A stretch of DNA of 64,000 nucleotides from Eledone cirrhosa (Eukaryota): positions 237,150,001-237,214,000 of the forward strand of contig OZ024743.1 of assembly GCA_964016885.1 (NCBI GenBank), read 5' to 3'. This document shows, piece by piece, positions 27,336-62,710 of this stretch. The notes under the pieces are model-generated. The model was not told the origin of the DNA, made no database searches, and saw only the letters and a program-made list of their open reading frames with translations. The stretch's first letter is position 1; each line of letters opens with the position of its first letter. The translations under genes and the position numbers were made by a program.

Positions 27336-29760
27336 TTATACTTCTCTTAGGTCAGTGTTGTTTGATTGGGTGTTGTTGTTATTCCACTCATTCTTTCTGT
27401 TTAGCTTTGGTCTTCTAATTTCTATTTCACTGGCTTCTCTGATTTGCCTATCTGCTGGGTCATTTCTATGTTTAGATATTATTCTAATTTCTATGTTGTC
27501 TGTTACCGTCATGTTGTCTAGCATGTTCGTATAGTACTGACCCGTTTTTTCGTCCTTTTAGTTCCCCCCAGTGTTGGTCTATCCTTTCACCTATGCTACG
27601 AGCTGTCTCACCTATGTATGTTGTTGTCATGTTTCTGCAAGTACCCTCTGTACATCTTATGCTATAGACTACGTTTCTAGTTTTACAGTTTATCCGGGGG
27701 TTCACCTTACATATGATACATTTCCTATTGGTACAGTGGGTTTTCTTAAAAGGGTAGGTTTTGCTGATCAGGGATTTTATGGTGGTTCCTGGCTTTTCTA
27801 CCACCTTTATTTTTAAGTGGGTCTTTCTCAGGGCCTTTCTACAGTGGTTAGCTAATTTCCCTCCAGGGGTGGCGTCCACAAACATGACACTCTGGTATCT
27901 CTGGTTGTCGTACCATGATGTGGCTTTCCCTATCTTATGTCTAGCCCTATCTAAGCTATTCCATGATTTGATCCTGTATAATGGGCAAATTCCTTTCATG
28001 TGCAGTTCTATGAGGGTCTTATACTTTTCCATGGCTCCTTCGTATACTCTGACTCTGTCTCTTTGGTTGTAGCCAGAGAACTGCATGCGGTTGATGAAGT
28101 GTTGGATGTGTCTTTCCATTTCTGTTGGGTCGCACATACTGGACACATTCTTCATCACTCGTACCAAATCTGCGATCAGAATATTAAACTTAGCACTACT
28201 GGACATTGCTGAGTTTTTGAGTATCAGGTATTTGGGGGCCATGGGTTTAGCATAGTGTGAGTGGAGAATTTGGGCTCTCTCATCTATAGTGTTAATCCAG
28301 AGTTCTGTGTCTAATACAGGTAGTCTATTGTTAGGGTGTTTGGAAGGGAAGTCGATAGTTACAGTTATACTCTGGTGTATGGAATTAGCTATCTGCTGGA
28401 TGCTTTCCATCGTGCTACGTTCTAAATCAAACTTGTTAGCGCTCTCTAGTGGGGGTGTTCTTATAACTATATTGATATCGTCTACATAACGAGAGTACAT
28501 GATGAGGTCTATGGAGCTTTCATTAAGGAGATCTTTAAGTCTCCTTTCCCACCATACCATGAAAAGGTTGGCAACATCACCAGCTATGCTGACGCCGATG
28601 GCTGCTCCCTCATTTTGGGTGTAGATTTTCTCATTGAACTTAAATATGTGGCCCTTTAGGGTAGTTTTGATACTAGCCCCTATTGCATGTGCGACCATTT
28701 TTCTTACCTGATCATTGTTTTGGGGGGTCCGTATAGCTTTGGTCCACCCAATCCACCTTCCCATGGGAGTCTTTTTTGCCATTGAGGTTATGGTGGAGGG
28801 TCTACCTCTTATAGGTCTACTAGGGCAGAAACATCTAAGGTCATGGCTGTCTAGGTAGTCAGTGTCGTAGGTAAGTCTAAGTAGGAGGCCCAGTTCGTCT
28901 GTGTCGACATCACAGAACTCCACCTCACTCTCAATGATCATCTCCACACATCTTTTCACAGCAAAATCAATGTTAATGGATGGGTACAGTGACACCACAT
29001 CCATGCTGCCTATTATGCAGTTGGATAGGCTCCTGTTTTTGTTGCACTCACTGATTCTGCTGAGGAGGTCCTCTGTACTGTCACATACATCTGGGGACAT
29101 CTTGATTATGGGGCGTATAACCATTGAGAGGAAGTAGGAGATCCTGTAGTTGCTAGCTATATTAGCTCCGCATACGGGTCTTGTTGGTGGTCCTGTTGTC
29201 GGGTCGTCGACTGTCTTGTGGTCTTTGCGGAGCCCATACAAGGGTGGTATGCCATTGTTAGACGCCTGGAAGTTGTTGGCAGTGCGTCTGCTTGGCTTTA
29301 GGATGTCAGTCCACATCATCATGTGAGCGTTGAAGACTTTTTCTCTCCCATCGTGTGTTTGTTGTGCAACTTCGCTCGTGTTGGTGATGTGGGGTTGCAT
29401 AGCCTCGATGTAGTTCGGCATGCTATCTATTGACATCCTACCAGACTTATCTGTGGGTAGACACACTACCTCACCATCCCTTGTGCGCTGCTTGAGGCTA
29501 ACCAAGCCTTCTACAGGCTTCCTCCCAAGTTGTTGGGCCTCTGGTCTGCTCTGTCTCTTAGTATACCTGTCTACTATTTGTCTAATCTTATTTCTAGCTA
29601 TGGTGAACTGTGCCTCTGTCTCGTCATCTATTTGTTGTGGTATGCAAACTCTTTTATTAAAGGGTAACCTCGTAGGATAGATATTACCCATCTTATATGT
29701 TTTGTCAGCTGGGTTGAAAAATAGTTTCTCTAAGGGGTTGTCATTATATCTATCGTCATA
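27336..29760 (-). pseudogene. Penelope reverse transcriptase + GIY-YIG endonuclease, frameshifted near the C-terminus
   Basis: Motifs PTDKSG, LYGLRKDHK, RPV, SMDVVSLYPSI, QNEGAAIG, YSRYVDD, LPVLDTEL, VVYSIRC...YIGETARSIGERIDQH; continues in ORF 27336-27524 (RQIREASEI...PKLN). The first ~17 aa of the listed 776-aa ORF come from the inserted SINE. Confidence 0.92.
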
Positions 29761-29946
29761 TGGCAGGTGGATTGGCAGTATCGGTAGAGGGTCGGACGTC
29801 ATGCTTTCCAGCATAGTTACGTCCCTTTACGATCTGAGTTCAAATCCAGCCGAGGTTAACTTTGCCTTTCATCCTTACGGGGTCGATAAAATAAAGTACC
29901 AGTAATGCACTGGGTAATTTCTGGCCTTGTGCTAATAGTAGAAACA
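29761..29946 (+). mobile_element. Full-length tRNA-derived SINE (family A) with target-site duplication
   Basis: A-box-like TGGCAGTATCGG, B-box GAGTTCAAATCC, central GCCTTTCATCCTTACGGGGTCGATAAA domain; ATTATATCTATCGTCATA repeated at 29743-29760 and 29947-29964. Confidence 0.9.
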
Positions 29947-41996: not shown

Positions 41997-42196
41997 AACT
42001 TGCCTCAACACTTAATTTTAAATCTTTAATTTTTAGTGTTTAATTGTTATTAATTCTTTTTAATTGTAATACTCAACATTTGATAAGATGAATTTTACTA
42101 ATACATCAAAACAGGTAATACTTTATATACATTATATACATTCTAAAACACTTTTTAAAAGAATTGTCCCTCTCATCTTTTCAATAATGTCACTTT

Positions 42197-42499
42197 TGTG
42201 GTTAGAAAAAGCTATCTCACTTACCGCTTTTCACAGGCGCCGCTAAATTCCACTGCAGGTTACTCCTCTTCCACGTGCGTCCAACTGCTTAACACCGGGA
42301 GCTGCCCAAACTCGCGTCCACACCGTGTGCTGGTCACCACTAGAGAGAGGCCCTCTGCTGGCCCTTCCGGTCGAGCATCCTTCCGGCCAAAAACCCCTTC
42401 CGGTCGAGCACTCCCCCGCCTCCGGCCACCGCACGCCACACACCCTTCCGGCCGAGCACTCCCCCGCCTCCGGCCACCGCACGCCACAACATACCCACA
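42197..42499 (-). repeat. 3' LTR
   Basis: Matches 46146-46448 apart from one substitution seen (CCGGCCGAG vs CCGGTCGAG). Confidence 0.95.
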
Positions 42500-42500
42500 C

Positions 42501-42518
42501 GCCCCCCCCCCCCCCCCC
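42501..42518 (-). other. Polypurine tract (poly-G)
   Basis: G-run on the minus strand just upstream of the 3' LTR. Confidence 0.85.
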
Positions 42519-42523
42519 TGATC

Positions 42524-45337
42524 TCAAGGATCAATTTCCCCCTCGTCCCTCTGCATATGAAAGTCTGCTGTCCAGGTCGGTGGTCTACGACTTCGTTGCG
42601 ATCTTCGTAGTATTGGGGCAGAGCTCTGGGTTTCCACCTCATCTTGGGTTTCCTCTTCCTCGGAGTCCGTCGACACAGTGATTCTTCTTACATCCAGGAC
42701 ATGACGTGGTACCCCGTCCACGGACACATTGTTCTTTGAATTTACGGCCGTCACCGTTCCCCTTCCCCATTGAGATGTGCAACGTGCATCTGGGGGCTTA
42801 ACCCAGACTTCTTCGCCCACCTGCACGAATGCACTCTCTCTCCCCACTGGCCGTTGTGGTGGCGTGCACGGGTGCCGCCACTCGTATTTGAATACTGCTC
42901 TGTGTGGCACCGATTCCTCGACCTGTCCAACCCGAGGGGACACATTGTACCAGAACACTGCCTCCATTGGTGAGATATGGCCCCGCTCCGCCATTGCCTT
43001 GATCGTCCGGTGGTGTCGCTCCACGATTCCATTCCCGCTCGGCCTGTGCGCCGCTCTGAAGAAACGGTCCACCTTCCATCCATCGAGCATCTCCCTCAGT
43101 GCCTCCGAGCGGAACGCTGCGCTGTTGTCCATCAGCAGTTCGTCCACAGGGCCCCGCTCCAAGAACACCTCTCTCAACGTCCGCACGATTTCCTCGGCCG
43201 TTCCAGTCTTCATCTCCCTCCATATCGCCATTCGACCTGGTCCACAGTCGACCATCGAGAGGTACGTTCCCTGTCGGTAGTGCGTCACATCCACCGCTAA
43301 TCGCTTCCAGTCGCGATCCACCGGGAGGCTTCCCGTTTCGTGTACACCCGGGGCGGGATCAATGGACTGACATCGGACGCAGCCTCTAACCACCCCCCGA
43401 ACACTGTGTCTGCTAACGTCCGAGTCGATTCTCCTGGCTAGGAACAGGCTCCTATCCACCCCCATGTGGTGCATGTCATGCAACCTCTTCAGGTCTAACT
43501 CGGTCAGCCGATACACGGCAGCTATCTCATCCTCTACCTCCTCCGGCGCTTCCATCCAGGCTTTCTTCACTCTAGTTAAGATGTCCGCCCTATTTTTCTC
43601 TGAGGGCACGAACACTACGCTCAGCTTCAGGTCGAACTCGGTGGCCAGCTCTCCTAACGTTCCCAGGCGGCGCTTTATCAGCATCTCCGCCGCGCCTCTC
43701 GTTCGCACTCTCTTCTCACTGGTGAGCACTGATCTTACCCATCCGAGTACAGTAGCCGAGTCGGTGCGTATCTCGATGGTGCGCAGCCCCCACCGCAGGG
43801 CGAGGTTCACCCCTCTCAACACCGCGTCCAGCTCGGCCACATTGATGTGGCTGCAGTCGTCCTTCTTTCTAAGCCAGGCTGCATCCTCGACCTCAACACC
43901 TCCTATCTCCAACGTGACACCCAGCGCTATGCTGCTGGCATCGCACCATACGGTCCCGCTCTGTGATTTGGGAACGTACCAGCGTCCCCGCACTGGGTCG
44001 TCGGCCTTCACCCTCCCCACGATCTCCTGCATCATGGCCACCGTCCTCTCGCCCACTCTGTCACTCCAAGTCACCCCTCCCGCTCGTCTCTTGACATAGC
44101 TGCATGCCGTCCGGAGCCACCCAGCGATCGGGTAGTGACCCACCAGCTTTCCACACACCGAGAAAAGCTCCCGCCTATTCATACTTGGGCCCAGTTCCGG
44201 AACTTCGTTTCCCCTCTGGAACACCAAAACGCCCGTCTTGTCTCGCCGTAGCCTAAGTCCCAGCGCGGCTCCTCCCTCCAATGCTTCTGATGGCTTCGCA
44301 GTCAGTCCATACCTCCGCAAATGGCTCGTGACCTCCGCCGCCGACACCAACGACTCGTCCACTAGGATGTCGTCAATATAGGAGTTAGTAGCCCTCTTTA
44401 TCTTGTCGGCCCTCCCCAGAGCGGTCTTGAGGACCGCCACCATGATCTTCGGTGCGGAGCTCAGCCCGAAACCGAGCCTGGTCAGGCAATATGTCCGGCC
44501 CTTATACCTGACCAGCTGATACCGCCAGAGCTTCTCATCTATATGCAACTGCAAGTAAGCCGACTTTAGATCCACGATCGCTGAACCCCCCGTCATGCGT
44601 CTCCACTCACGCAGGGTTTCCCCACAGACATCCGTGACCTCGCCACCCGTGTGGCATGACACGTGCTCGTTCAGCTCCCGATAGTCCAGCACCGGCCTCA
44701 CCTTGCTCTTCGTGGGTTCCACCACCGCCATCAACGGCAATACTCCGCACTTCACCTCCTCCTTCCAGGGAAGCAGTATTCCCTCTTCGATCCATCTCTC
44801 TACTTCTCGCTCGAACTCGCTCCTAGCGTTTCCCATCAATGTGTGTTGATAGCAGCCCACTTTGGTCTTCAGTGTTGGTGGTTCTCCCTTCCAGTACCAC
44901 TCAACAACCCATCGCTGCCCATGAAACACGGCCTTGAAGTCTTTGTCCTGTACAGTGTAAGCGGGGTATTCCTCCTCGTGGGCCTTCTGGTTCTCATGAT
45001 GTGCACTCACAGCGCATACAGATGCAGCGGCGCCAAACGACACACCCACATTGTTTACCGTGACGCTCCCTAGACGGCCAATCGCGTCCATGCCCATAAC
45101 CACGCCGATCCCATCCACCACACTGTCTACCACGATGGCGGAAAGCCTTATCCTCCTTCCCCGTACCGCTATTTCCATCTCGCTGCGACCTCGGCATTCA
45201 ATTTTCCTGCCGTCGACTGCCCTTACGCTGCTCTTCCCTCCCCACCTCTGCGCCACCCCCGCGGTCACCAGTGTCGTCGTACAGCCCGTATCCACGAGGG
45301 CTCGCTGTGGCTTCCCCCTCACGAAGACTTCCACCAC
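42524..45337 (-). CDS. pol: Pol polyprotein: aspartic protease, RT, RNase H, integrase
   Basis: LVDTG; RPVLDYRELN, VDLKSAYLQL, LGFGLSSAP, YIDD; WCDAS...ELDA...TDS...ADILTR; H..HH...CVRC; DVTH, MDNS, SGNGIVERHH; frame is open upstream to about 45397. Confidence 0.95.
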   Translation of the reverse strand: MVEVFVRGKPQRALVDTGCTTTLVTAGVAQRWGGKSSVRAVDGRKIECRGRSEMEIAVRGRRIRLSAIVVDSVVDGIGVVMGMDAIGRLGSVTVNNVGVSFGAAASVCAVSAHHENQKAHEEEYPAYTVQDKDFKAVFHGQRWVVEWYWKGEPPTLKTKVGCYQHTLMGNARSEFEREVERWIEEGILLPWKEEVKCGVLPLMAVVEPTKSKVRPVLDYRELNEHVSCHTGGEVTDVCGETLREWRRMTGGSAIVDLKSAYLQLHIDEKLWRYQLVRYKGRTYCLTRLGFGLSSAPKIMVAVLKTALGRADKIKRATNSYIDDILVDESLVSAAEVTSHLRRYGLTAKPSEALEGGAALGLRLRRDKTGVLVFQRGNEVPELGPSMNRRELFSVCGKLVGHYPIAGWLRTACSYVKRRAGGVTWSDRVGERTVAMMQEIVGRVKADDPVRGRWYVPKSQSGTVWCDASSIALGVTLEIGGVEVEDAAWLRKKDDCSHINVAELDAVLRGVNLALRWGLRTIEIRTDSATVLGWVRSVLTSEKRVRTRGAAEMLIKRRLGTLGELATEFDLKLSVVFVPSEKNRADILTRVKKAWMEAPEEVEDEIAAVYRLTELDLKRLHDMHHMGVDRSLFLARRIDSDVSRHSVRGVVRGCVRCQSIDPAPGVHETGSLPVDRDWKRLAVDVTHYRQGTYLSMVDCGPGRMAIWREMKTGTAEEIVRTLREVFLERGPVDELLMDNSAAFRSEALREMLDGWKVDRFFRAAHRPSGNGIVERHHRTIKAMAERGHISPMEAVFWYNVSPRVGQVEESVPHRAVFKYEWRHPCTPPQRPVGRESAFVQVGEEVWVKPPDARCTSQWGRGTVTAVNSKNNVSVDGVPRHVLDVRRITVSTDSEEEETQDEVETQSSAPILRRSQRSRRPPTWTADFHMQRDEGEIDP

Positions 45338-45349
45338 GGGCAGCGCCGC

Positions 45350-46086
45350 TACTCGTAAGGGGCAACTACCGGCGCAGTAGTTCCCCTTGGATCGTTTCCA
45401 TGGTCGCAGTTAGTAGCGATGTGGCCTGGTCGCTTACACCATTATCTCCGGCTTCGACTCTCTACAGTCTCTAGCCATGTGCGGGCCTTGGCACCGAAAA
45501 CAGCGCCCTCTAAACGCACGCGGACGGCCGCGTGCCGAGGTTGCCTCCCTTTCACCATTTCGCTGCCAGGTGTCCTGGGCCTCCGCAGTTGCTATCGCCG
45601 CAACACTCTTTTTGGCATCTTCCGCTATGATCCGGGCTTGTTCCACCAGTGAACGCATTTCCATTTCTTTATAACCCGGGACTTGCTGCAGTTTCACCGC
45701 TATGTCGTCCGGAAATCCATTGATGAACGCCAACCGCACCGTGCGTTCGCATTCTGCCTGGTAACTGGCCAACATAGCCAACCGGCGTATTTCCGCTGCG
45801 AAAATGTCGACGCGCTCACCATTCCACCTGATTCTCGCCAGCTTAGCAAAAGCCGCCAACGGTCCCTCGGCGAATGCATCCATCAGACGCCATCTCTTTG
45901 GCTGTGCTCGTCCAACTCAAGGCAGAGTACCAACGCGTCGCCCTCGAGGTACAATGCCATGAGGCCGGCCACGTCCTCTATCTTCTGCAAGCTTGCGACC
46001 AGCCGAACCTTCCGCAGCCAAGCGACAACATCACCTTCCCCGGTGAATGCCCTGATAGTTTCGTTCATCCGTAGTCTTGTCGCCAT
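45350..46086 (-). pseudogene. gag: Gag with CCHC knuckle(s), broken by two small frameshifts
   Basis: ORFs 45883-46086 and 45434-45883 (CFRCQGPHMARDC); a second knuckle remnant C-K-R-P-G-H-I-A-T-N-C in another frame ends at TAG 45350-45352. Confidence 0.85.
45357..45400 (-). promoter_or_regulatory. Putative -1 ribosomal frameshift signal between gag and pol
   Basis: Minus strand TGGAAAC, then AAGGGGAACTAC...GTAGTTGCCCCTT hairpin 5 nt downstream; the -1 frame from this point is continuous with pol. Confidence 0.65.
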
Positions 46087-46133
46087 CTTCTGATTTGTCT
46101 TGCGGCATTTTTTTTTTTTTTTTTTTTTCAGTC

Positions 46134-46145
46134 GCCGAAATAGCT
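46134..46145 (-). other. Non-canonical primer-binding site complementary to tRNA-Phe nt 1-12
   Basis: Plus strand GCCGAAATAGCT equals the 5' end of metazoan tRNA-Phe(GAA) (GCCGAAAUAGCUCAG...); it directly abuts the 5' LTR. Confidence 0.75.
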
Positions 46146-46448
46146 TGTGGTTAGAAAAAGCTATCTCACTTACCGCTTTTCACAGGCGCCGCTAAATTCC
46201 ACTGCAGGTTACTCCTCTTCCACGTGCGTCCAACTGCTTAACACCGGGAGCTGCCCAAACTCGCGTCCACACCGTGTGCTGGTCACCACTAGAGAGAGGC
46301 CCTCTGCTGGCCCTTCCGGTCGAGCATCCTTCCGGCCAAAAACCCCTTCCGGTCGAGCACTCCCCCGCCTCCGGCCACCGCACGCCACACACCCTTCCGG
46401 TCGAGCACTCCCCCGCCTCCGGCCACCGCACGCCACAACATACCCACA
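46146..46448 (-). repeat. 5' LTR
   Basis: 303 bp, TG...CA, followed by TSD ACTTT. Confidence 0.95.
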
Positions 46449-46590
46449 ACTTTGACGAATCAAATAAAGGAAAAAAAGAAAAACAGACCCTAAAATATAT
46501 TTTCCGTGCTATTTCAAACTTCACCTTTTCTCTATATCCACTGTTTTGTATACAACCTTACTTCCCTTTTCTAATATATATATATATATA

Positions 46591-51750: not shown

Positions 51751-54528
51751 TTAGTTTACTCTGATTTTCCTTTTCAAATGAAATTTGAAAAAGTCAATCA
51801 GAGCATCACCGAAGAGGTAAGTGCTCGTCTTCAGCCCTTTCAAACGTGTCCACCATACTATCTCTTTCACCATGGCCACCAGGCAGATAAAAACTGCCTG
51901 CCCTTCCCGGCTAAAGGAGGAGGGCGGGGCAATCCTCACGATGGACTCAGATGATAGCCGGATCCTCAGCCACGGCATGCCCAGCCCTCCACGTAGCGGG
52001 TGTTGACAACAGATGGACCGCCTGACCATCGGAGCGCGTCCCTTCCACAAAAAGCGAAAGAGCAAACGCTCCAGCGCAGTCAGGCGAGGCTTAGGACAAG
52101 GTACGACGGTCAGACGGTAGCAGATGACGGACGCGATGTACGCGTTAGCCACCTCCGCTCGACCTTTCAGGGATAGCTTCCTCTCCGCCCATTTCTGGGT
52201 GAGAGAAGCCACCCTGCTCGTCACCTCGTCCCAGTTTTTGTCCGTCTGGAGGTCCGGACCGAACCAGACCCCTAGCAATTTAACCGGTCCGTCCGTCCAG
52301 CGTCCGACGACGCTGTTGGACGGCATGGACCTGCCTCTCCAGGTGCCGAGCTGCAGGCCCACTGACTTTTCCTGGTTGATCATTGCTCCTGTCACCGCTT
52401 CGTATTCTCTTAGTGTAGTGCCGATCGCCTCGATGTGTTTGGCGCTCGACACCACTACGGTGACATCGTCCGCATATGCTGACACTGATCTTCCGCATCC
52501 TAGTTCGCGCGGGACTCCCCTCAACGTCTCCAGTTTGTGCAGTAATGGCTCGAGAGTCAATACGTACAAGAGGGACGAGAGGGGACATCCTTGGCGGACC
52601 GAGCGCATGATGTTGAACGGTTCCGACAGGTGACCGTTCACTCTCACCACAGAGCAGATGTCGCTGTGCATGGCAGCGATCCAGCCTCTGAAGACGGGCC
52701 CAAAGCCAGCCGCCCTCAGGACTGCCGCTAGGTAACGATGGTCGACCCTATCGAAAGCTTTCGACTGATCTAAATTGATCAAGGACCCACCCGTGCCAGG
52801 TTCCCTAGCTACCCTCTCTACGATGTATCGCATGAGGTGGAGGTTGTCGTGGATGGATCTGTCGGGAATGGCGCATGTCTGCGCCTCTCCCACCAGACCA
52901 CCAACGACAAGCGCCAACCTCTTTGCTAGCACCTTGGCCAAAATCTTAAACTCTGTGTTTAGCAGAGTTATGGGCCGGAAATTGTCTATGTTATCCCCCT
53001 TGTTCGGATCCTTTCTCAGCAGTGCCACCGCTCCTCGGCTCACAGAACTGGGAATTCTCCCGTTCTGTTGCCAGTTGTAGTAGACGTCCGCCAAGAGGCC
53101 TCCGAACAAGTCTGGCATCTGTACGTAAAGTTCATAGGGCAGACCATCCAAACCAGGCGATTTACCCCTTGTGCAGCCAGTCATTGCCTCCCTTACTTCA
53201 GCGGCTGTTATCGGCTTTTCGCAACACTTCGCCTCAGTGGCCGAGAGCCGCGGCAGTCCGTCGAGGTAGACACTAAAGTCCATCCCTCTACCCGGCCCCC
53301 CGCTGCCCCCGAACAGCTGAGCGAAGTGTCGCTGAAAAGCTTCACACATTTGCCCGGGATCGAGTAGCATGCGCCCGTCGTGGTCCACCAAAGACCGGAT
53401 CGTGGCTTTGTTGCCACGACGCGCCTCCGCCACTCGGGCCCATTGAACGGCTTTCGTCCCCTCGTGTCTGAGAGCACGCACCCTAGCTCTGACAACGCAG
53501 CCTTCGTGCTTTGCATTGAAGAATTGGTCAAGGGCCAATTTCGCCGCAAGCACGTCGGTCGCAATGCCTTTGCTAAGCGCCTCGTCTAATTTTTTAACTA
53601 GTTCTCCCTCTGCTCTATTTTTCTCTATTGCTAAAGCCTTACTAAACCTAATCGATTCTATTCTAATCGCTCTTTTCAGAGCAAACCACCACTTGTTGTT
53701 GACGATGGCCCCCGTCAACGCCCGCTTAACTAGTTCGCTAATTCGGTCTCTGTAGGCCTTGCGCGCTGGTAAGGACGCGTTTAGCTTCCAGTAGCCGGGT
53801 CCTCGTCTATGAAGCCTATCTAAGTCAAGCACACAGGTCACGAATTTGTGGTCCGTGTAGCTGACTATCTTGAATTGTGGACAGCCTATGCTAGACCTAT
53901 CTATTTCCCTACAAAATACTCTATCTAGATATGATCTGGATGACCCTATGCGGTTTGTCCAAGTCCACATTGGCACATTCGGGAAATCCAATCGGTACCT
54001 GTCAGACAGTTCAAAACGCCTGAGCAGGTTGGTGAGGCTCTTGCACCCTCCACCCCTATCCGCTAATCCCACACAGTCCCAGCGTGCATCTAAGATCCCG
54101 TTCCAGTCGCCCACTAACACTAAAGAGCGGGACGTTCCAAGAAAGGTCTCCAGACGCCGGAAGAAATCAGGCCGCCCTGCTCCTGTCGGGGCATAGACGG
54201 CCACTAGCCTGAAAGCTTGCCCGTCTCCGCTGGTCACGTCCAGCACCACCAGCTTACCCTCTGGGTCCAGGAAGATGGCCCGTATGGCGAGATCCAAACC
54301 TCTCCGAAAAAGCACAGCAACTCCTCCACCCGATCCAGGACGGCTGGGAGATGCGTACACATCGTAGCCGCCGAAGATCGGTGCGAAGGCCCGTGCTTCG
54401 GAGATTCTGGTCTCGCTGATGGCCACTACATCTATGTTTAGTGACCTGAGGTCGTTGAGCAGGTGACCCTGCTTCCATGACGACCCCAAGCCACGCGCAT
54501 TTATGCTGCCTATTCTGAGTGAGGTCAT
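51751..54528 (-). CDS. ORF2: APE endonuclease + RT, C-terminal zinc finger deleted
   Basis: SINARGL, ISET, GDWN, SYLDRV, TDH; KSPGLDG, FRPITLLN, LDQSKAFDRV, RQGCPLS, AYADD. Confidence 0.93.
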   Translation of the reverse strand: MTSLRIGSINARGLGSSWKQGHLLNDLRSLNIDVVAISETRISEARAFAPIFGGYDVYASPSRPGSGGGVAVLFRRGLDLAIRAIFLDPEGKLVVLDVTSGDGQAFRLVAVYAPTGAGRPDFFRRLETFLGTSRSLVLVGDWNGILDARWDCVGLADRGGGCKSLTNLLRRFELSDRYRLDFPNVPMWTWTNRIGSSRSYLDRVFCREIDRSSIGCPQFKIVSYTDHKFVTCVLDLDRLHRRGPGYWKLNASLPARKAYRDRISELVKRALTGAIVNNKWWFALKRAIRIESIRFSKALAIEKNRAEGELVKKLDEALSKGIATDVLAAKLALDQFFNAKHEGCVVRARVRALRHEGTKAVQWARVAEARRGNKATIRSLVDHDGRMLLDPGQMCEAFQRHFAQLFGGSGGPGRGMDFSVYLDGLPRLSATEAKCCEKPITAAEVREAMTGCTRGKSPGLDGLPYELYVQMPDLFGGLLADVYYNWQQNGRIPSSVSRGAVALLRKDPNKGDNIDNFRPITLLNTEFKILAKVLAKRLALVVGGLVGEAQTCAIPDRSIHDNLHLMRYIVERVAREPGTGGSLINLDQSKAFDRVDHRYLAAVLRAAGFGPVFRGWIAAMHSDICSVVRVNGHLSEPFNIMRSVRQGCPLSSLLYVLTLEPLLHKLETLRGVPRELGCGRSVSAYADDVTVVVSSAKHIEAIGTTLREYEAVTGAMINQEKSVGLQLGTWRGRSMPSNSVVGRWTDGPVKLLGVWFGPDLQTDKNWDEVTSRVASLTQKWAERKLSLKGRAEVANAYIASVICYRLTVVPCPKPRLTALERLLFRFLWKGRAPMVRRSICCQHPLRGGLGMPWLRIRLSSESIVRIAPPSSFSREGQAVFICLVAMVKEIVWWTRLKGLKTSTYLFGDALIDFFKFHLKRKIRVN

Positions 54529-54563
54529 GTTTAAAATAGAGTGGAAAAGATGGGAAAGACCAC

Positions 54564-56642
54564 TTACCGTACTTTTGGTAGAGGAGGGATGGTTTTTACA
54601 TCCCTTTTCACTTGATCGTCTGGTGAAGGGACCGTTGAATCGTCCCTTCGGCTGGTCGTCGGCTCTTCTAAGAGAATGTCTGAGTATACTCTTCGATTGA
54701 TGGTTCCTCCTAGGTCCCTGAAATCACCAACTGCGTTGGGGAATTTCGTTTTAATGTTTGTGTATTGTTTCTGTGCTATTTTTAGCAGTCTTATGTTAGT
54801 TGGCGTTTTGATTGGTGCTGGTATTATGTAGTCCTGTTGTGAAATGTCTGTGTGTTCAATTATGTAAGTCATTAGTTTCTTGTTGTGTGTATTTATTGCC
54901 GTGCATTTGTTTTTCTGGGGGTGGGGTGTGGTTCTACTATTTTCTTGTCGTTGTTGCTGGGTGTGTGTGTTTTGTTGTTGTGTTTGCGATGTTGGTGCTT
55001 GTGGTGGTGGTGTTAAAGGTGTTGTTGGCGGTGGTGATGGTGGTGCTAGTGTGGGTGGTGATGGTGTTGGTGTTGTTGCTGCTGTGGGTCTCTTTGCAGT
55101 AGACTTTACCCTTTTCTCATTTCTTTCCTCCCTTTTCAAAGGCGACGATGCGCTGCTTCTGCGTTTGTGCCTTCTTACGACCTTTTGCCATCCCTCTCCC
55201 ACCTCACACTCCATGTCTGATTCTGTGAGGTCGGGGAGGGGTACCAGCTCCACTCTTTCACTTGTTGTTGGTGATGTTTGCACTGGAGTCTCTGTTGCAG
55301 CTGCATTTGGTATTGCTGTTGTTGTTGTTAATATTTCCACTGCTGCTGCTGTTTTTGATTTCCGTGGAGTGGGTATGGGTGCCACGGACCTATCGTTCCT
55401 GGTTGCCGCTTGTCCTGTTGCTGGTAGCCGTGGAGCCGGATTCGGAAGGAGGGGGGTTTTCTCCTTTCTCAGGGTCTTCTCGTTGCAGAAGGCCCTGAGG
55501 TGAGTCTTCGATCCACAGCGAAAGCATTTCGGGCGTTTGCCCTCAACACTTATGGACAGTTGAGTGCCGTTATCGAAGTCTATCACATCCGGGATAGCTT
55601 CGATGCACTCCTGGTTGGTTTGGATTAGCATCTCAATGGAGGAGCCGACCCAATCTTCTCTTACTTTTTTCTGTACTTGCAGTACAGTTGTTTTGTCCTC
55701 GATTCCGACGAGGACAGACGCGGCCAGCCAAGAAGGGGTCATTCCGGGGGGGACGTGGGTTAGTTTGACCCTCACAATTTTTTGCCCACAGTAGGAGGGC
55801 ACCAACACCATTTCCTCGCTCCTTAGGGTCACTACTGATTGGGCCTTTGCCTCCTGGGGTGTGGCAAAAAGTACGTCTACGGTGGCATATTTTTTGCCTC
55901 GGGTGATGTGCGTTTTCCGCTGCCACACAGACCCCAAGGCTTTTTGTATTTGGGCCTCTGTGGCTCTTTCCACCCTACGGGATTTTGTACTTACTGTACG
56001 GTACGTGGCCGTACAGTGCTCTTGGGTTTCGAAAAATTTTTCCGCTGCCTTGCAGATTGCTCGGTGTCCGTTCTTTGTAACCATCTTCTTCGCTTCCTCT
56101 AATTCCTCATTTGTTATGAGGATTGTTTCCAAGTTTTTCGCAATACCTGCAAATGAGATTGGTTTTTCTCTGCTGTTGTTGTTGTCGTCAGAGCTGCTGG
56201 TACTTTTGTTGTTGCTGCAGGTACTACGACTACTGCCTCCGCCGCTGTTGCTGTGGTTGTTGTTGGTGTTGCTGCTGCTAATGCTGTTGTTGTTTATGCT
56301 GCTGGTGATGCTGTTGCGGCTGCTACTGTTGTTTTCATTGTCACTGTTGCTGTTGTTATTACGGCTGCTACTGCTATTATTCCTGACGTCAGACGAATGA
56401 ACTGGGTTTTCGTATTTCCCGCACACCTGTTTCGTCGCTGTCGTCGTCGTCGTGGAGAAACTTTGCACGCTTTGCACGAGACTTTTCTTTTCTTTCGTCA
56501 CTTGCGAAAGAGAAGGGAGGGAGAGAGACACATTTAAAGAAGGGAGGGAGAGAGACAATCTTCTCTCTGCTGTAGTGATGATTGAGGAAGAAGAAGACGG
56601 AATGAGTGGGAGTGACGTATGAAATTTCTTTTTCGTAGCCAT
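54564..56642 (-). CDS. ORF1: nucleic-acid-binding protein with CCHC knuckle and low-complexity N/S and P/T tracts
   Basis: CFRCGSKTHLRAFC; lies upstream of ORF2; conserved in copy B. Confidence 0.9.
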   Translation of the reverse strand: MATKKKFHTSLPLIPSSSSSIITTAERRLSLSLPSLNVSLSLPSLSQVTKEKKSLVQSVQSFSTTTTTATKQVCGKYENPVHSSDVRNNSSSSRNNNSNSDNENNSSSRNSITSSINNNSISSSNTNNNHSNSGGGSSRSTCSNNKSTSSSDDNNNSREKPISFAGIAKNLETILITNEELEEAKKMVTKNGHRAICKAAEKFFETQEHCTATYRTVSTKSRRVERATEAQIQKALGSVWQRKTHITRGKKYATVDVLFATPQEAKAQSVVTLRSEEMVLVPSYCGQKIVRVKLTHVPPGMTPSWLAASVLVGIEDKTTVLQVQKKVREDWVGSSIEMLIQTNQECIEAIPDVIDFDNGTQLSISVEGKRPKCFRCGSKTHLRAFCNEKTLRKEKTPLLPNPAPRLPATGQAATRNDRSVAPIPTPRKSKTAAAVEILTTTTAIPNAAATETPVQTSPTTSERVELVPLPDLTESDMECEVGEGWQKVVRRHKRRSSASSPLKREERNEKRVKSTAKRPTAATTPTPSPPTLAPPSPPPTTPLTPPPQAPTSQTQQQNTHTQQQRQENSRTTPHPQKNKCTAINTHNKKLMTYIIEHTDISQQDYIIPAPIKTPTNIRLLKIAQKQYTNIKTKFPNAVGDFRDLGGTINRRVYSDILLEEPTTSRRDDSTVPSPDDQVKRDVKTIPPLPKVR

Positions 56643-57158: not shown

Positions 57159-60100
57159 TTACAGATATATACTCAGAGTCGGCCCATTCACTCGGGCCAT
57201 TCTTGCTTCTCTCACCCATCTTTCAACAAAATGCTGGGAAGAGAGCACTTCCTTCTCTACTCTGATTTTCCTTTTCAAATGAAATTTGAAAAAGTCAATC
57301 AGAGCATCACCGAAGAGGTAAGTGCTCGTCTTCAGCCCTTTCAAACGTGTCCACCATACTATCTCTTTCGCCATGGCCACCAGACAGATAAAAACTGCCT
57401 GCCCTTCCCGGCTAAAGGAGGAGGGCGGGGCAATCCTCACGATAGACTCAGATGATAGCTGGATCCGTCCTAAACGCGACAGCAGGTGTTCGACATAAAC
57501 CCACAAGTCAGCAATTTTCGGACACTGGACGAGTGCGTGCAGGACGGTTTCGTCGCCCTGCGCGCATCTCGGACATGCCCGGCTGACGGCACCTCCATGC
57601 CTGTAGAGTTTATCCCGAACTGGCAAGGCTCCTCGGTAGCACTGCCAGGCCAGAGATTTCTGGAAGTTGTCCATAGGCCCTGGCCCGAAAGTTCTTCCGA
57701 AGAGATTGGCTAGTTGATTTTCGTCGACGCCTAGAGTTTCCCCAAGTACGTCGTCGCTCTTCCCCTCCACTAATCCTCTATAGAACGCCGAGGTGGAGTT
57801 TCCACCGATCACATTGCCCGATTGGTCGAGGGCTGTGAGCGCCTGAAGACATTCCAGTCTCCAGGCGCTCCCTCTCGGTCTTCGCTTGACCCAGGACTGC
57901 AGCTCCGTCAAGGAAACGAGCTGGGGAAAAACGCGTCTAGCAAACGGCGACCACACCTGATCACCGTCGAGGAAGAGGTGGAGATGTCGTAGCCTGAGCG
58001 CGTGCCTGCGCATCATCAGCCACGGCATGCCCAGCCCTCCACGTAGCGGGTGTTGACAACAGATGGACCGCCTGACCATCGGAGCACGTCCCTTCCACAA
58101 AAAGCGAAAGAGCAAACGCTCCAGCGCAGTCAGGCGAGGCTTAGGACAAGGTACGACGGTTAGGCGGTAGCAGATGACAGACGCGATGTACGCGTTAGCC
58201 ACCTCCGCTCGACCTTTCAGGGATAGCTTCCTCTCCGCCCATTTCTGGGTGAGAGAAGCCACCCTGCTCGTCACCTCGTCCCAGTTTTTGTCCGTCTGGA
58301 GGTCCGGACCGAACCAGACCCCTAGCAATTTAACCGGTCCGTCCGTCCAGCGCCCGACGACGCTGTTGGACGGCATGGACCTGCCTCTCCAGGTGCCGAG
58401 CTGCAGGCCCACTGACTTTTCCTGGTTGATCATTGCTCCTGTCACCGCTTCGTATTCTCTTAGTGTAGTGCCGATCGCCTCGATGTGTTTGGCGTTCGAC
58501 ACCACTACGGTGACATCGTCCGCATATGCTGACACGGATCTTCCGCATCCTAGTTCGCGCGGGACCCCCCTCAACGTCTCCAGTTTGTGCAGTAATGGCT
58601 CGAGAGTCAATACGTACAAGAGGGACGAGAGGGGACATCCTTGGCGGACCGAGCGCATGATGTTGAACGGTTCCGACAGGTGACCGTTCACTCTCACCAC
58701 AGAGCAGATGTCGCTGTGCATGGCAGCGATCCAGCCTCTGAAGACGGGCCCAAAGCCAGCCGCCCTCAGGACTGCCGCTAGGTAACGATGGTCGACCCTA
58801 TCGAAAGCTTTCGACTGATCTAAATTGATCAAGGACCCACCCGTGCCAGGTTCCCTAGCTACCCTCTCTACGATGTATCGCATGAGGTGGAGGTTGTCGT
58901 GGATGGATCTGTCGGGAATGGCGCATGTCTGCGCCTCTCCCACCAGACCACCAACGACAAGCGCCAACCTCTTTGCTAGCACCTTGGCCAAAATCTTAAA
59001 CTCTGTGTTTAGCAGAGTTATGGGCCGGAAATTGTCTATGTTATCCCCCTTGTTCGGATCCTTTCTCAGCAGTGCCACCGCTCCTCGGCTCACAGAACTG
59101 GGAATTCTCCCGTTCTGTTGCCAGTTGCAGTAGACGTCCGCCAAGAGGCCTCCGAACAAGTCTGGCATCTGTACGTAAAGTTCATAGGGCAGACCATCCA
59201 AACCAGGCGATTTACCCCTTGTGCAGCCAGTCATTGCCTCCCGTACTTCAGCGGCTGTTATCGGCTTTTCGCAACACCTCGCCTCAGTGGCCGAGAGCCG
59301 CGGCAGTCCGTCGAGGTAGACACTAAAGTCCATCCCTCTACCCGGCCCCCCGCTGCCCCCGAACAGCTGAGCGAAGTGTCGCTGAAAAGCTTCACACATT
59401 TGCCCGGGATCGAGTAGCATGCGCCCGTCGTGGTCCACCAAAGACCGGATCGTGGCTTTGTTGCCACGACGCGCCTCCGCCACTCGGGCCCATTGAACGG
59501 CTTTCGTCCCCTCGTGTCTGAGAGCACGCACCCTAGCTCTGACAACGCAGCCTTCGTGCTTTGCATTGAAGAATTGGTCAAGGGCCAATTTCGCCGCAAG
59601 CACGTCGGTCGCAATGCCTTTGCTAAGCGCCTCGTATAATTTTCTAACTAGTTCTCCCTCTGCTCTATTTTTCTCTATTGCTAAAGCCTTACTAAACCTA
59701 ATCGATTCTATTCTAATCGCTCTTTTCAGAGCAAACCACCACTTGTTGTTGACGATGGCCCCCGTCAACGCCCGCTTAACTAGTTCGCTAATCCGGTCTC
59801 TGTAGGCCTTGCGCGCTGGTAAGGACGCGTTTAGCTTCCAGTAGCCGGGTCCTCGTCTATGAAGCCTATCTAAGTCAATCACACAGGTCACGAATTTGTG
59901 GTCCGTGTAGCTGACTATCTTGAATTGTGGACAGCCTATGCTAGACCTATCTATTTCCCTACAAAATACTCTATCTAGATATGATCTGGATGACCCTATG
60001 CGGTTTGTCCAAGTCCACATTGGCACATTCGGGAAATCCAATCGGTACCTGTCAGACAGTTCAAAACGCCTGAGCAGGTTGGTGAGGCTCTTGCACCCTC

Positions 60101-60578
60101 CACCCCTATCCGCTAATCCCACACAGTCCCAGCGTGCATCTAAGATCCCGTTCCAGTCGCCCACTAACACTAAAGAGCGGGACGTTCCAAGAAAGGTCTC
60201 CAGACGCCGGAAGAAATCAGGCCGCCCTGCTCCTGTCGGGGCATAGACGGCCACTAGCCTGAAAGCTTGCCCGTCTCCGCTGGTCACGTCCAGCACCACC
60301 AGCTTACCCTCTGGGTCCAGGAAGATGGCCCGTATGGCGAGATCCAAACCTCTCCGAAAAAGCACAGCAACTCCTCCACCCGATCCAGGACGGCTGGGAG
60401 ATGCGTACACATCGTAGCCGCCGAAGATTGGTGCGAAGGCCCGTGCTTCGGAGATTCTGGTCTCGCTGATGGCCACTACATCTATGTTTAGTGACCTGAG
60501 GTCGTTGAGCAGGTGACCCTGCTTCCATGACGACCCCAAGCCACGCGCATTTATGCTGCCTATTCTGAGTGAGGTCAT
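57159..60578 (-). CDS. ORF2: APE endonuclease + RT + C-terminal CCHC zinc finger (1139 aa)
   Basis: As copy A plus GGLGMP and CPRCAQGDETVLHALVQC. Confidence 0.96.
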   Translation of the reverse strand: MTSLRIGSINARGLGSSWKQGHLLNDLRSLNIDVVAISETRISEARAFAPIFGGYDVYASPSRPGSGGGVAVLFRRGLDLAIRAIFLDPEGKLVVLDVTSGDGQAFRLVAVYAPTGAGRPDFFRRLETFLGTSRSLVLVGDWNGILDARWDCVGLADRGGGCKSLTNLLRRFELSDRYRLDFPNVPMWTWTNRIGSSRSYLDRVFCREIDRSSIGCPQFKIVSYTDHKFVTCVIDLDRLHRRGPGYWKLNASLPARKAYRDRISELVKRALTGAIVNNKWWFALKRAIRIESIRFSKALAIEKNRAEGELVRKLYEALSKGIATDVLAAKLALDQFFNAKHEGCVVRARVRALRHEGTKAVQWARVAEARRGNKATIRSLVDHDGRMLLDPGQMCEAFQRHFAQLFGGSGGPGRGMDFSVYLDGLPRLSATEARCCEKPITAAEVREAMTGCTRGKSPGLDGLPYELYVQMPDLFGGLLADVYCNWQQNGRIPSSVSRGAVALLRKDPNKGDNIDNFRPITLLNTEFKILAKVLAKRLALVVGGLVGEAQTCAIPDRSIHDNLHLMRYIVERVAREPGTGGSLINLDQSKAFDRVDHRYLAAVLRAAGFGPVFRGWIAAMHSDICSVVRVNGHLSEPFNIMRSVRQGCPLSSLLYVLTLEPLLHKLETLRGVPRELGCGRSVSAYADDVTVVVSNAKHIEAIGTTLREYEAVTGAMINQEKSVGLQLGTWRGRSMPSNSVVGRWTDGPVKLLGVWFGPDLQTDKNWDEVTSRVASLTQKWAERKLSLKGRAEVANAYIASVICYRLTVVPCPKPRLTALERLLFRFLWKGRAPMVRRSICCQHPLRGGLGMPWLMMRRHALRLRHLHLFLDGDQVWSPFARRVFPQLVSLTELQSWVKRRPRGSAWRLECLQALTALDQSGNVIGGNSTSAFYRGLVEGKSDDVLGETLGVDENQLANLFGRTFGPGPMDNFQKSLAWQCYRGALPVRDKLYRHGGAVSRACPRCAQGDETVLHALVQCPKIADLWVYVEHLLSRLGRIQLSSESIVRIAPPSSFSREGQAVFICLVAMAKEIVWWTRLKGLKTSTYLFGDALIDFFKFHLKRKIRVEKEVLSSQHFVERWVREARMARVNGPTLSIYL

Positions 60579-60613
60579 GTTTAAAATAGAGTCGAAAAGA
60601 TGGGAAAGACCAC

Positions 60614-62710
60614 TTACCGTACTTTTGGTAGAGGAGGGATGGTTTTTACATCCCTTTTCACTTGATCGTCTGGTGAAGGGACCGTTGAATCGTCCCTTCG
60701 GCTGGTCGTCGGCTCTTCTAAGAGAATGTCTGAATATACTCTTCGATTGATGATTCCTCCTAGGTCCCTGAAATCACCAACTGCGTTGGGGAATTTCGTT
60801 TTAATGTTTGTGTATTGTTTCTGTGCTATTTTTAGCAGTCTTATGTTAGTTGGCGTTTTGATTGGTGCTGGTATTATGTAGTCCTGTTGTGAAATGTCTG
60901 TGTGTTCAATTATGTAAGTCATTAGTTTCTTGTTGTGTGTGTTTATTGCCGTGCATTTGTTTTTCTGGGGGTGGGGTGTGGTTCTGCTATTTTCTTGTCG
61001 TTGTTGCTGGGTGTGTGTGTTTTGTTGTTGTGTTTGCGATGTTGGTGCTTGTGGTGGTGGTGTTGAAGGTGTTGTTGGCGGTGGGGTTGTCGCCGGTGGT
61101 GATGGTGGTGCTGGTGTGGGTGGTGATGGTGTTGGTGGTGTTGCTGCTGTGGGTCTCTTTGCAGTAGACTTTACCCTTTTCTCATTTCTTTCCTCCCTTT
61201 TCAAAGGCGACGATGCGCTGCTTCTGCGTTTGTGCCTTCTTGCGACCTTTTGCCATCCCTCTCCCACCTCACACTCCATGTCTGATTCTGTAAGGTCGGG
61301 GAGGGGTACCAGCTCCACTCTTTCACTTGTTGTTGTTGGTGATGTTTGCACTGGAGTCTCTGTTGCAGCTGCATTTGGTATTGCTGTTGTTGTTGTTAAT
61401 ATTTCCACTGCTGCTGCTGTCTTTGATTTCCGTGGAGTGGGTATGGGTGCCACGGACCTATCGTTCCTGGTTGCCGCTTGTCCTGTTGCTGGTAGCCGTG
61501 GAGCCGGATTCGGAAGGAGGGGGGTTTTCTCCTTTCTCAGGGTCTTCTCGTTGCAGAAGGCCCTGAGGTGAGTCTTCGATCCACAGCGAAAGCATTTCGG
61601 GCGTTTGCCCTCAACACTTATGGGCAGTTGAGTGCCGTTATCGAAGTCTATCACATCCGGGATAGCTTCGATGCACTCCTGGTTGGTTTGGATTAGCATC
61701 TCAATGGAGGAGCCGACCCAATCTTCTCTTACTTTTTTCTGTACTTGCAGTACAGTTGTTTTGTCCTCGATTCCGATTAGGACAGACGCGGCCAGCCAAG
61801 AAGGGGTCATTCCGGGGGGGACGTGGGTCAGTTTGACCCTCACAATTTTTTGCCCACAGTAGGAGGGCACCAACACCATTTCCTCGCTCCTTAGGGTCAC
61901 TACTGATTGGGCCTTTGCCTCCTGGGGTGTGGCAAAAAGTACGTCTACGGTGGCATATTTTTTGCCTCGGGTGATGTGCGTTTTCCGCTGCCACACAGAC
62001 CCTAAGGCTTTTTGTATTTGGGCCTCTGTGGCTCTTTCCACCCTACGGGATTTTGTACTTACTGTACGGTACGTGACCGTACAGTGCTCTTGGGTTTCGA
62101 AAAAATTTTTCGCTGCCTTGCAGATTGCTCGGTGTCCGTTCTTTGTCACCATCTTCTTCGCTTCCTCTAATTCCTCATTTGTTATGAGGATTGTTTCCAA
62201 GTTTTTCGCAATACCTGCAAATGAGATTGGTTTTTCTCTGCTGTTGTTGTTGTCGTCAGAGCTGCTGGTACTTTTGTTGTTGCTGCAGGTACTACGACTA
62301 CTGCCTCCGCCGCTGTTGCTGTGGTTGTTGTTGGTGTTGCTGCTGCTAATGCTGTTGTTGTTTATGCTGCTGGTGATGCTGTTGCGGCTGCTACTGTTGT
62401 TTTCATTGTCACTGTTGCTGTTGTTATTACGGCTGCTACTGCTATTATTCCTGACGTCAGACGAATGAACTGGGTTTTCGTATTTCCCGCACACCTGTTT
62501 CGTCGCTGTCGTCGTCGTCGTGGAGAAACCTTGCACGCTTTGCACGAGACTTTTCTTTTCTTTCGTCACTTGCGAAAGAGAAGGGAGGGAGAGAGACACA
62601 TTTAAAGAAGGGAGGGAGAGAGACAATCTTCTCTCTGCTGTAGTGATGATTGAGGAAGAAGAAGACGGAATGAGTGGGAGTGACGTATGAAATTTCTTTT
62701 TCGTAGCCAT
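60614..62710 (-). CDS. ORF1 (698 aa)
   Basis: Nearly identical to 54564-56642. Confidence 0.92.
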   Translation of the reverse strand: MATKKKFHTSLPLIPSSSSSIITTAERRLSLSLPSLNVSLSLPSLSQVTKEKKSLVQSVQGFSTTTTTATKQVCGKYENPVHSSDVRNNSSSSRNNNSNSDNENNSSSRNSITSSINNNSISSSNTNNNHSNSGGGSSRSTCSNNKSTSSSDDNNNSREKPISFAGIAKNLETILITNEELEEAKKMVTKNGHRAICKAAKNFFETQEHCTVTYRTVSTKSRRVERATEAQIQKALGSVWQRKTHITRGKKYATVDVLFATPQEAKAQSVVTLRSEEMVLVPSYCGQKIVRVKLTHVPPGMTPSWLAASVLIGIEDKTTVLQVQKKVREDWVGSSIEMLIQTNQECIEAIPDVIDFDNGTQLPISVEGKRPKCFRCGSKTHLRAFCNEKTLRKEKTPLLPNPAPRLPATGQAATRNDRSVAPIPTPRKSKTAAAVEILTTTTAIPNAAATETPVQTSPTTTSERVELVPLPDLTESDMECEVGEGWQKVARRHKRRSSASSPLKREERNEKRVKSTAKRPTAATPPTPSPPTPAPPSPPATTPPPTTPSTPPPQAPTSQTQQQNTHTQQQRQENSRTTPHPQKNKCTAINTHNKKLMTYIIEHTDISQQDYIIPAPIKTPTNIRLLKIAQKQYTNIKTKFPNAVGDFRDLGGIINRRVYSDILLEEPTTSRRDDSTVPSPDDQVKRDVKTIPPLPKVR

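Follow-up and report, generated by a model that had tools for sequence, protein, structure and literature searches.

The LTR retrotransposon described here, from Eledone cirrhosa, carries immediately after its 5' LTR a 12-nt site that is the exact complement of the start of the host tRNA-Phe(GAA). The observation is real and extends across the lineage to which this element belongs, and priming by the 5' end of a tRNA is very likely, judging from the sequences. Our preferred explanation, with a probability of roughly 0.55, is that the site is primed by nt 1-12 of tRNA-Phe, cut after nt 12 by the element's own RNase H. What appears to be new is a site that pairs with tRNA nt 1-12; primers consisting of a cut RNA or of a tRNA piece were already known.

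The window, i.e., the whole stretch of 64,000 nt that was analyzed, holds on its minus strand a young LTR element of 4,252 nt (Table 1). It presents the features of an LTR retrotransposon: direct TG...CA LTRs, a target site duplication, a polypurine tract and gag-pol with a DDE integrase. An earlier note on this DNA had reported near-identical LTRs, and we indeed observed a single mismatch over 303 nt, together with a 5-bp target duplication. The open pol, which it listed as a further sign of recent activity, was confirmed (961 aa), but the gag of the window copy is broken, and the stop at 45436 falls in its zinc-knuckle-like end. The 5' LTR is rich in G+C and contains neither an AATAAA nor a TATA motif. 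Throughout the lineage, pol carries a single RNase H (model pLDDT 84.9), and DUF7047 corresponds to the thumb region in the structure model of pol. The acidic residues of RT and RNase H are invariant in 23/23 aligned relatives, the RNase H set being D-E-D-D. Two further motifs were observed. One is a hexamer resembling a splice donor, which some families carry 20-28 nt upstream of the LTR end (window 46174-46169; L167, L076) and most relatives lack. The other is short and self-complementary, and several families have it just upstream of their polypurine tract (window 42520-42535; also L084, L096, L167 and L170).

Table 1. Features of the LTR element, in window positions
Feature	Position	Strand	Remarks
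Target site duplication, upstream copy	46449..46453	-	5 bp
5' LTR	46146..46448	-	303 nt, TG...CA, 5-nt inverted ends
Splice-donor-like hexamer	46169..46174	-	28 nt upstream of LTR end; primer match independent of hexamer
U5 stretch pairing with primer site	46158..46168	-	11 bp including G:U, about -10 kcal/mol
Predicted primer-binding site	46134..46145	-	Exact complement of tRNA-Phe(GAA) nt 1-12; zero spacer to LTR
Leader A-run	46108..46128	-	21 nt; restricted to youngest subfamily
gag region	45410..46086	-	Broken in window copy by a frame change (near 45.9 kb) and a stop (45436)
pol	42524..45409	-	Open, 961 aa; protease, RT, DUF7047, one RNase H, DDE (rve) integrase
Polypurine tract (G-run)	42500..42519	-	Followed by two bases before 3' LTR
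3' LTR	42197..42499	-	303 nt; one difference from 5' LTR (mismatch at 46401)
Target site duplication, downstream copy	42192..42196	-

The 12-mer (46145-46134, minus strand) directly follows the terminal CA of the 5' LTR at 46146, with zero spacer as originally described, and it occurs only once in the window. No TGG is present in the first 25 bases past the LTR, which agrees with the claimed absence of a TGG-initiated primer site. The 12-mer had also been said to be followed by an A-run; a run of 21 A does exist (46128-46108), but it is not adjacent, since five bases (46133-46129) lie between. The proposed identity of the complement with the first 12 nt of the host tRNA-Phe(GAA) was confirmed: three tRNA-Phe genes inferred with ARAGORN (L021, L136 and L137) start at the match, as do four others that belong to a tandem array. 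The first 25 nt of tRNA-Phe occur 210 times in the genome (0 for the control). The match is confined to tRNA nt 1 through nt 12, again as claimed, and the LTR end is unpaired with nt 13 onward. In the three tRNA-Phe genes that were read, no pairing was found between the bases after the site and the pre-tRNA leaders. As a side observation, a long tandem array (L389; C4:117.37-117.58 Mb) has a unit of 1,257-1,259 bp with one tRNA-Phe and one tRNA-Asn gene each, and 97/100 of the first-listed tRNA-Phe starts fall in it.

The match between the 12-mer and the tRNA is not due to chance: its probability is about 3e-8 at one fixed site and about 1e-5 when 60 tRNAs and 6 offsets are allowed. The exact 12-mer has 853 matches in the genome, relative to 24 for the reversed control; among the first 30 of the 853 matches, 25 stand in front of a gag or pol of the lineage, one is a tRNA-Phe gene and four are unrelated. 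No other part of the element shares a Watson-Crick complement of at least 8 nt with tRNA-Phe, in a comparison that covered the whole element except 4 nt at the beginning of the LTR. With no second tRNA contact of at least 8 nt in the element, a bipartite site of the Ty3 kind was ruled out. When the tRNA and the leader were folded together, the 12-bp duplex was present in the minimum-energy state. In a model that has no modified bases, the duplex contributes -18.7 kcal/mol, against the cost of opening two tRNA stems (~14.7) and a leader hairpin (~10.4).

We further analyzed 30 copies of the host genome, the window copy included, chosen by RT similarity from 150 scored. These relatives keep the 12-mer, as anticipated (27/30 exact, 3/30 with one change). 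The site is therefore not a deletion artefact of a single copy, a possibility that is ruled out by these RT-selected copies and by the metagenome relatives sharing the site. The expectation that the 12-mer would be fixed while its flanks diverge also held: host families with 61-86% pol identity present unrelated U5 and leader sequences and the same 12 bases. The 12-mer is also a marker of this large lineage, of which the host genome contains hundreds of copies. Among 20 longer stretches (12 picked by site and 8 by RT), the site was found in 18; the exceptions are L181 and L183, the latter with its LTR end and gag start deleted. The LTR-LTR alignment stops at the site, or one base into it, in 8/20 of these stretches and is shorter, extended by chance or absent in the others. 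As a control, ordinary PF17917-type Gypsy elements of the same genome present a TGG 2-8 nt past the LTR in 5/10 cases (L367-L370 and L373), the other five having unclear ends.

Genomic footprints of primer copying are weak or blank. In the young family, 3/348 bases changed at the site and 11/870 in the flanks, and the site is not clearly better conserved. When 83 copies were placed on a tree, six changes fell on the base after the site, five of them substitutions and the sixth an insertion, and 16/430 other columns changed as often; a hot spot at the base-12 junction is suggestive only, and CpG decay explains part of it. A search of 4 + 100 listed junctions of 3' and solo LTRs found no retained primer copy. 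The search for LTR-LTR circle junctions yielded 11 matches (16 for the control), and none of the 10 checked came from the element. The contigs of four unclassified runs contained nothing relevant. Another pattern, seen 13 times, was rejected as part of an unrelated repeat.

Relatives of the element are widely distributed. Named protein relatives were found in Argonauta, Oratosquilla, Petrolisthes, Aplysia, Trichuris, Macrosteles, Amphibalanus and Perkinsus, and a profile search retrieved 1,250 clusters at E 1e-30 or better, some of which may lie outside the lineage. A metagenome scan with the RT-RH region yielded 62 loci with 33-62% identity over long matches; 21 of them lack a gag start, which leaves 41 informative contigs, some being near-duplicates. 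A 12-mer of the tRNA-start type was present right after an LTR-like end and shortly before gag in 40/41 of these contigs. A TGG site at the LTR edge, one of the outcomes that the earlier note had named as refuting, was absent from every contig holding the region; the one exception to the 12-mer, L080, starts too late, about 95 nt ahead of gag, and has no visible LTR end. The metagenome sites are clean in 36/40 cases, and the remaining four (L075, L105, L115 and L121) deviate from a tRNA start at their far end. No relatives of the lineage were found in viral contigs. There, ARAGORN genes starting with such 12-mers were obtained at 12/80 loci (Phe or Thr, prokaryote-like), a result with little bearing on the hosts.

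Site variation was tabulated over 35 family-level elements (29 from metagenomes and 6 from the host), without the near-copy L116 and without later finds. The sites of this table were found by motif search, which makes it partly circular, although the loci themselves were selected by protein. All 35 elements have zero spacer between LTR end and site. Positions 2-5 are identical in 35/35 elements, positions 1 and 10-12 in 32-34/35 and position 8 in 12/35. Beyond position 12, no base exceeds 17/35; conservation covers the last three LTR bases and positions 1-12, with background on both sides. The variable bases of the site face tRNA nt 4-7, in the acceptor stem, and the fixed bases face nt 1-3 and 8-11. 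An A at tRNA position 9 is faced by 35/35 sites; a G at position 9 of tRNAs is often methylated, which blocks pairing.

The variants correspond to the starts of several tRNAs. Two sites (L088 and L093) equal the start of the host tRNA-Met(CAT) genes, including the changed first base that faces nt 12, and a third (L099) is one base off the host Lys(CTT) start. Two others (L079 and L106) equal the start of human tRNA-Lys3 as given in the accessible text of 10.1101/2024.12.07.627298. Judged by these sequences, the trait belongs to the whole lineage, which would use Lys-type and Met-type tRNA starts in addition to tRNA-Phe. On the RT-RH tree, the site variants are scattered over several branches, two of which contain the three Phe-type metagenome sites. 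The two commonest variants make up 21/40 metagenome sites; presumably these reflect the tRNA-Phe of non-animal hosts, and the literature searched offered no assignment of a eukaryotic tRNA to them. Co-variation of the site with the host's own tRNA was seen for the Eledone genome only. Two side observations concern these variants and their tRNAs. The near-identical elements L113 and L116 differ at one base of the site, where a G:U pair could keep the same tRNA. In the host genome, tRNA genes of the Met(CAT) and Lys(UUU) types form arrays at C2:102.03-102.09 Mb (L390) and C2:99.02-99.11 Mb; ARAGORN reads introns of about 19-22 nt in them, and intron-bearing Met and Lys tRNA genes are unusual for an animal.

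The classification of the lineage is less straightforward than the label Gypsy given in the earlier note. The domain order PR-RT-RH-IN fits this label, but RT and RNase H are only ~20-24% identical to the ordinary Gypsy ORFs of the host genome. Moreover, this order is common to BEL/Pao elements and retroviruses as well. The profile search with pol found no match to PF17917 or PF17919 at E 0.01, none to PF05380 (BEL/Pao) and, in Pfam, none to a chromodomain. The best RT folds are those of caulimovirus, metavirus-like and retrovirus enzymes, with identity to solved and viral RTs of at most 20%. Some RT/RH motifs of the lineage may be DIRS-like; the features of DIRS and tyrosine-recombinase elements are absent, the element having an rve integrase and direct LTRs, and no tyrosine-recombinase element was found in the host genome for comparison. 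The lineage may belong to Metaviridae, and it possibly corresponds to a mollusc clade described in PMC6238403, whose main text, in its accessible part, does not mention tRNA. We also observed a sister group (P0231, P0219 and relatives) of ~1,400-aa gag-pol fusions, many from Sycon, with the same DUF7047 RT and a longer, Gypsy-like integrase region. A PF05380 cluster scores only 0.89 for this sister group in the Atlas, and no member of the Sycon type (~45% RT identity) was found in the host genome.

In LTR elements, minus-strand synthesis defines the LTR end, and the primer must therefore anneal on the bases after the LTR. The 5' end of a tRNA provides no 3'-OH, and priming from it therefore requires a cut at or near nt 12. 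According to our preferred reading, the acceptor and D stems of the tRNA would be opened, probably with the help of Gag, and nt 1-12 would anneal to the site as a 12-bp duplex. The remaining tRNA would hang as a flap, and a cut at the duplex edge after nt 12 would generate the 3'-OH from which RT could extend into U5. The plus-strand strong-stop DNA would then copy the primer to its 5' end and halt by run-off. This geometry would be that of Tf1, with the tRNA 5' end replacing the element's own 5' end. Indeed, the RNase H of Tf1 is described as cutting an RNA duplex between bases 11 and 12 (PMC7175516), and the polymerase and RNase H sites of Ty3 are reported to lie ~13 bp apart (PMC5371799). 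The sequences make it highly probable that a 5' tRNA segment serves as primer, and our analysis favors, at somewhat better than even odds, the element's RNase H as the maker of the primer end. Since every LTR element requires an intact RNase H, its conservation here does not single out this route. The true primer end could lie at nt 10-12, given the two bases between the polypurine tract and the other LTR end.

The main rival to the RNase H route retains the same tRNA primer and attributes the 3'-OH to a host nuclease, either through a pre-formed short 5' fragment whose end lies at nt 12 or is trimmed back to it, or through an RNase P-type cleavage of a refolded tRNA of the kind proposed for half-tRNA priming. 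The sequence evidence fits this scenario equally well, tRNA nt 13-76 are able to refold (-14.4 kcal/mol), and the end from which Ty5 primes is described as a product of host RNase P cleavage (PMC5371799). On the other hand, Phe-, Lys- and Met-type sites all measure 12 nt although their hosts differ greatly, as would suit an element enzyme that acts as a ruler, and nt 13-14 are unpaired with the LTR end. In most cases, short 5' fragments of tRNAs extend to nt 14-16, and the cyclic phosphate produced by RNase A/T2-type cuts is unable to prime, neither of which fits the 12-nt site. We regard this scenario as unlikely, although it deserves serious consideration.

An uncut tRNA could also be anchored by its 5' end and prime either through a 2'-OH close to nt 12 or through its 3' end, freed and unpaired. 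This would make a nuclease unnecessary, and invasion of the acceptor stem would free the 3' end; yet the element offers no second contact of at least 8 nt and, close to the LTR edge, lacks a TGG with which the CCA end could pair, and no precedent among LTR elements was found in the literature examined. We consider this quite improbable. The readings in which the primer is not a tRNA are improbable even when combined. The site might be a regulatory or packaging target for tRNAs or their fragments, with priming by something else, such as a protein. This appears very improbable in view of the zero spacer in all 35 tabulated elements, the absence of any other primer site, and the TGG found 2-8 nt after the LTR in 5/10 ordinary Gypsy elements sampled from the same genome. 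The least probable reading, Tf1-like self-priming by the element RNA, direct or via a splice junction and with an incidental tRNA match, is largely refuted: the U5 stretch of the window family pairs over 11 bp with the site (G:U included) and U5 holds a donor-like hexamer, but the longest Watson-Crick complement within up to 297 nt upstream is at chance level (4-7 nt in 35 elements, 4.1-5.7 in shuffles), a direct or splice-built primer copy is absent from 5/5 full elements, the U5 stem is just 12-23 nt from the LTR end, and the site tracks tRNA starts, not LTR sequence. The U5 pairing itself is present in four host families (9-11 bp, G:U used) and missing from most metagenome relatives.

The closest known counterpart of the RNase H route is found in Tf1 and Tf2 of Schizosaccharomyces pombe (Tf1/sushi), which are self-priming Ty3/gypsy elements. 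Like our lineage, they lack a TGG, and the LTR is directly followed by a short site complementary to an RNA 5' end; to release the primer, the RNA has to be cut where the duplex ends (between 11 and 12 in Tf1, PMC7175516; proposed for our lineage). In contrast, their partner is their own transcript, whereas the lineage would use the 5' end of a host tRNA; Tf1 pairs over 11 nt rather than 12, and the lineage also stands apart by its lack of a chromodomain match and its RT with at most 20% identity to solved or viral RTs. Half-tRNA priming, as described for Drosophila copia, yeast Ty5, plant Osser, Bryco and Bianca, and fungal Helenus and Copia (PMC6317226, PMC10886601, PMC5371799), likewise relies on a 5' tRNA piece and not on the CCA end. 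However, these are Ty1/copia elements whose site pairs with the anticodon arm, whereas our lineage has the order PR-RT-RH-IN and a site for nt 1-12, from the acceptor strand to the D stem; complementarity to the anticodon arm was not encountered in the element, the nt 1-12 match being the only one to tRNA-Phe. Ty3/gypsy elements (Metaviridae) and other TGG-site elements, including Saci2/lennie, share TG...CA LTRs, the target duplication, the polypurine tract, gag followed by PR-RT-RH-IN and a host tRNA primer. Identity with Saci2/lennie was rejected on the basis of their described site, which is one for a tRNA 3' end. Finally, Skipper of Dictyostelium is another LTR element without a canonical site and with unexplained priming (PMC5006619), but it presents a polypyrimidine stretch and a chromodomain, whereas our lineage presents an exact complement of a tRNA start.

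A plant-wide survey distinguishes three primer types of LTR elements, i.e., whole tRNA, half tRNA and self primer (PMC6317226). The primers described in the accessible parts of the literature are tRNA 3' ends, half tRNAs and self primers, apart from a few cases without an explanation, and nt 1-12 is not among them (PMC7472051, PMC4558846, PMC13524379, PMC5006619, PMC6088434, PMC7175516, PMC10886601, PMC3587641, PMC6238403, PMC6317226, PMC11042837, PMC4139406, PMC5371799, PMC12471100, 10.1101/2024.12.07.627298). No prior report of priming by tRNA nt 1-12 was found in the literature searched, a scope that excludes Repbase, Dfam, GyDB and most subscription papers, and the site strings did not occur in the retrotransposon literature among the matches listed. 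We put the chance that an earlier description exists near one in four.

A site for tRNA nt 1-12 would add a fourth type to the three of the survey (PMC6317226, in its accessible part). In its fullest form, to which we give slightly under even odds, this fourth class would consist of an old, widespread and so far unnamed lineage with a divergent RT that captures the host tRNA 5' end, employs RNase H as a 12-nt ruler, bridges tRNA priming and Tf1 self-priming and escapes 3'-tRF control. It would range over animals from sponges to cephalopods, an alveolate and many metagenome hosts. The system suggests a route linking tRNA priming and self-priming, and it offers a direct test of whether the Tf1-type cleavage of an RNA duplex by RNase H can act on host RNA. 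If this reading is true, the elements would be out of reach of the 3' tRNA fragments described as blocking priming at TGG sites (PMC7472051), and very short 5' tRNA fragments would gain a possible role. Pipelines that scan tRNA 3' ends only, as described for example in PMC13524379, would score no site in these elements, which may explain why they were overlooked.

The window contains other sequences of note, all on the minus strand. A tandem pair of similar ORFs, at 51751-54723 and 57159-60773, encodes the endonuclease and RT of non-LTR retrotransposons, and each ORF is preceded by a 700-aa frame without a Pfam match. A 780-aa frame at 27484-29826 presents a weak RT match. Finally, very long open frames of up to 4,523 aa without Pfam matches extend over 3732-25821, and these probably represent a tandem repeat.
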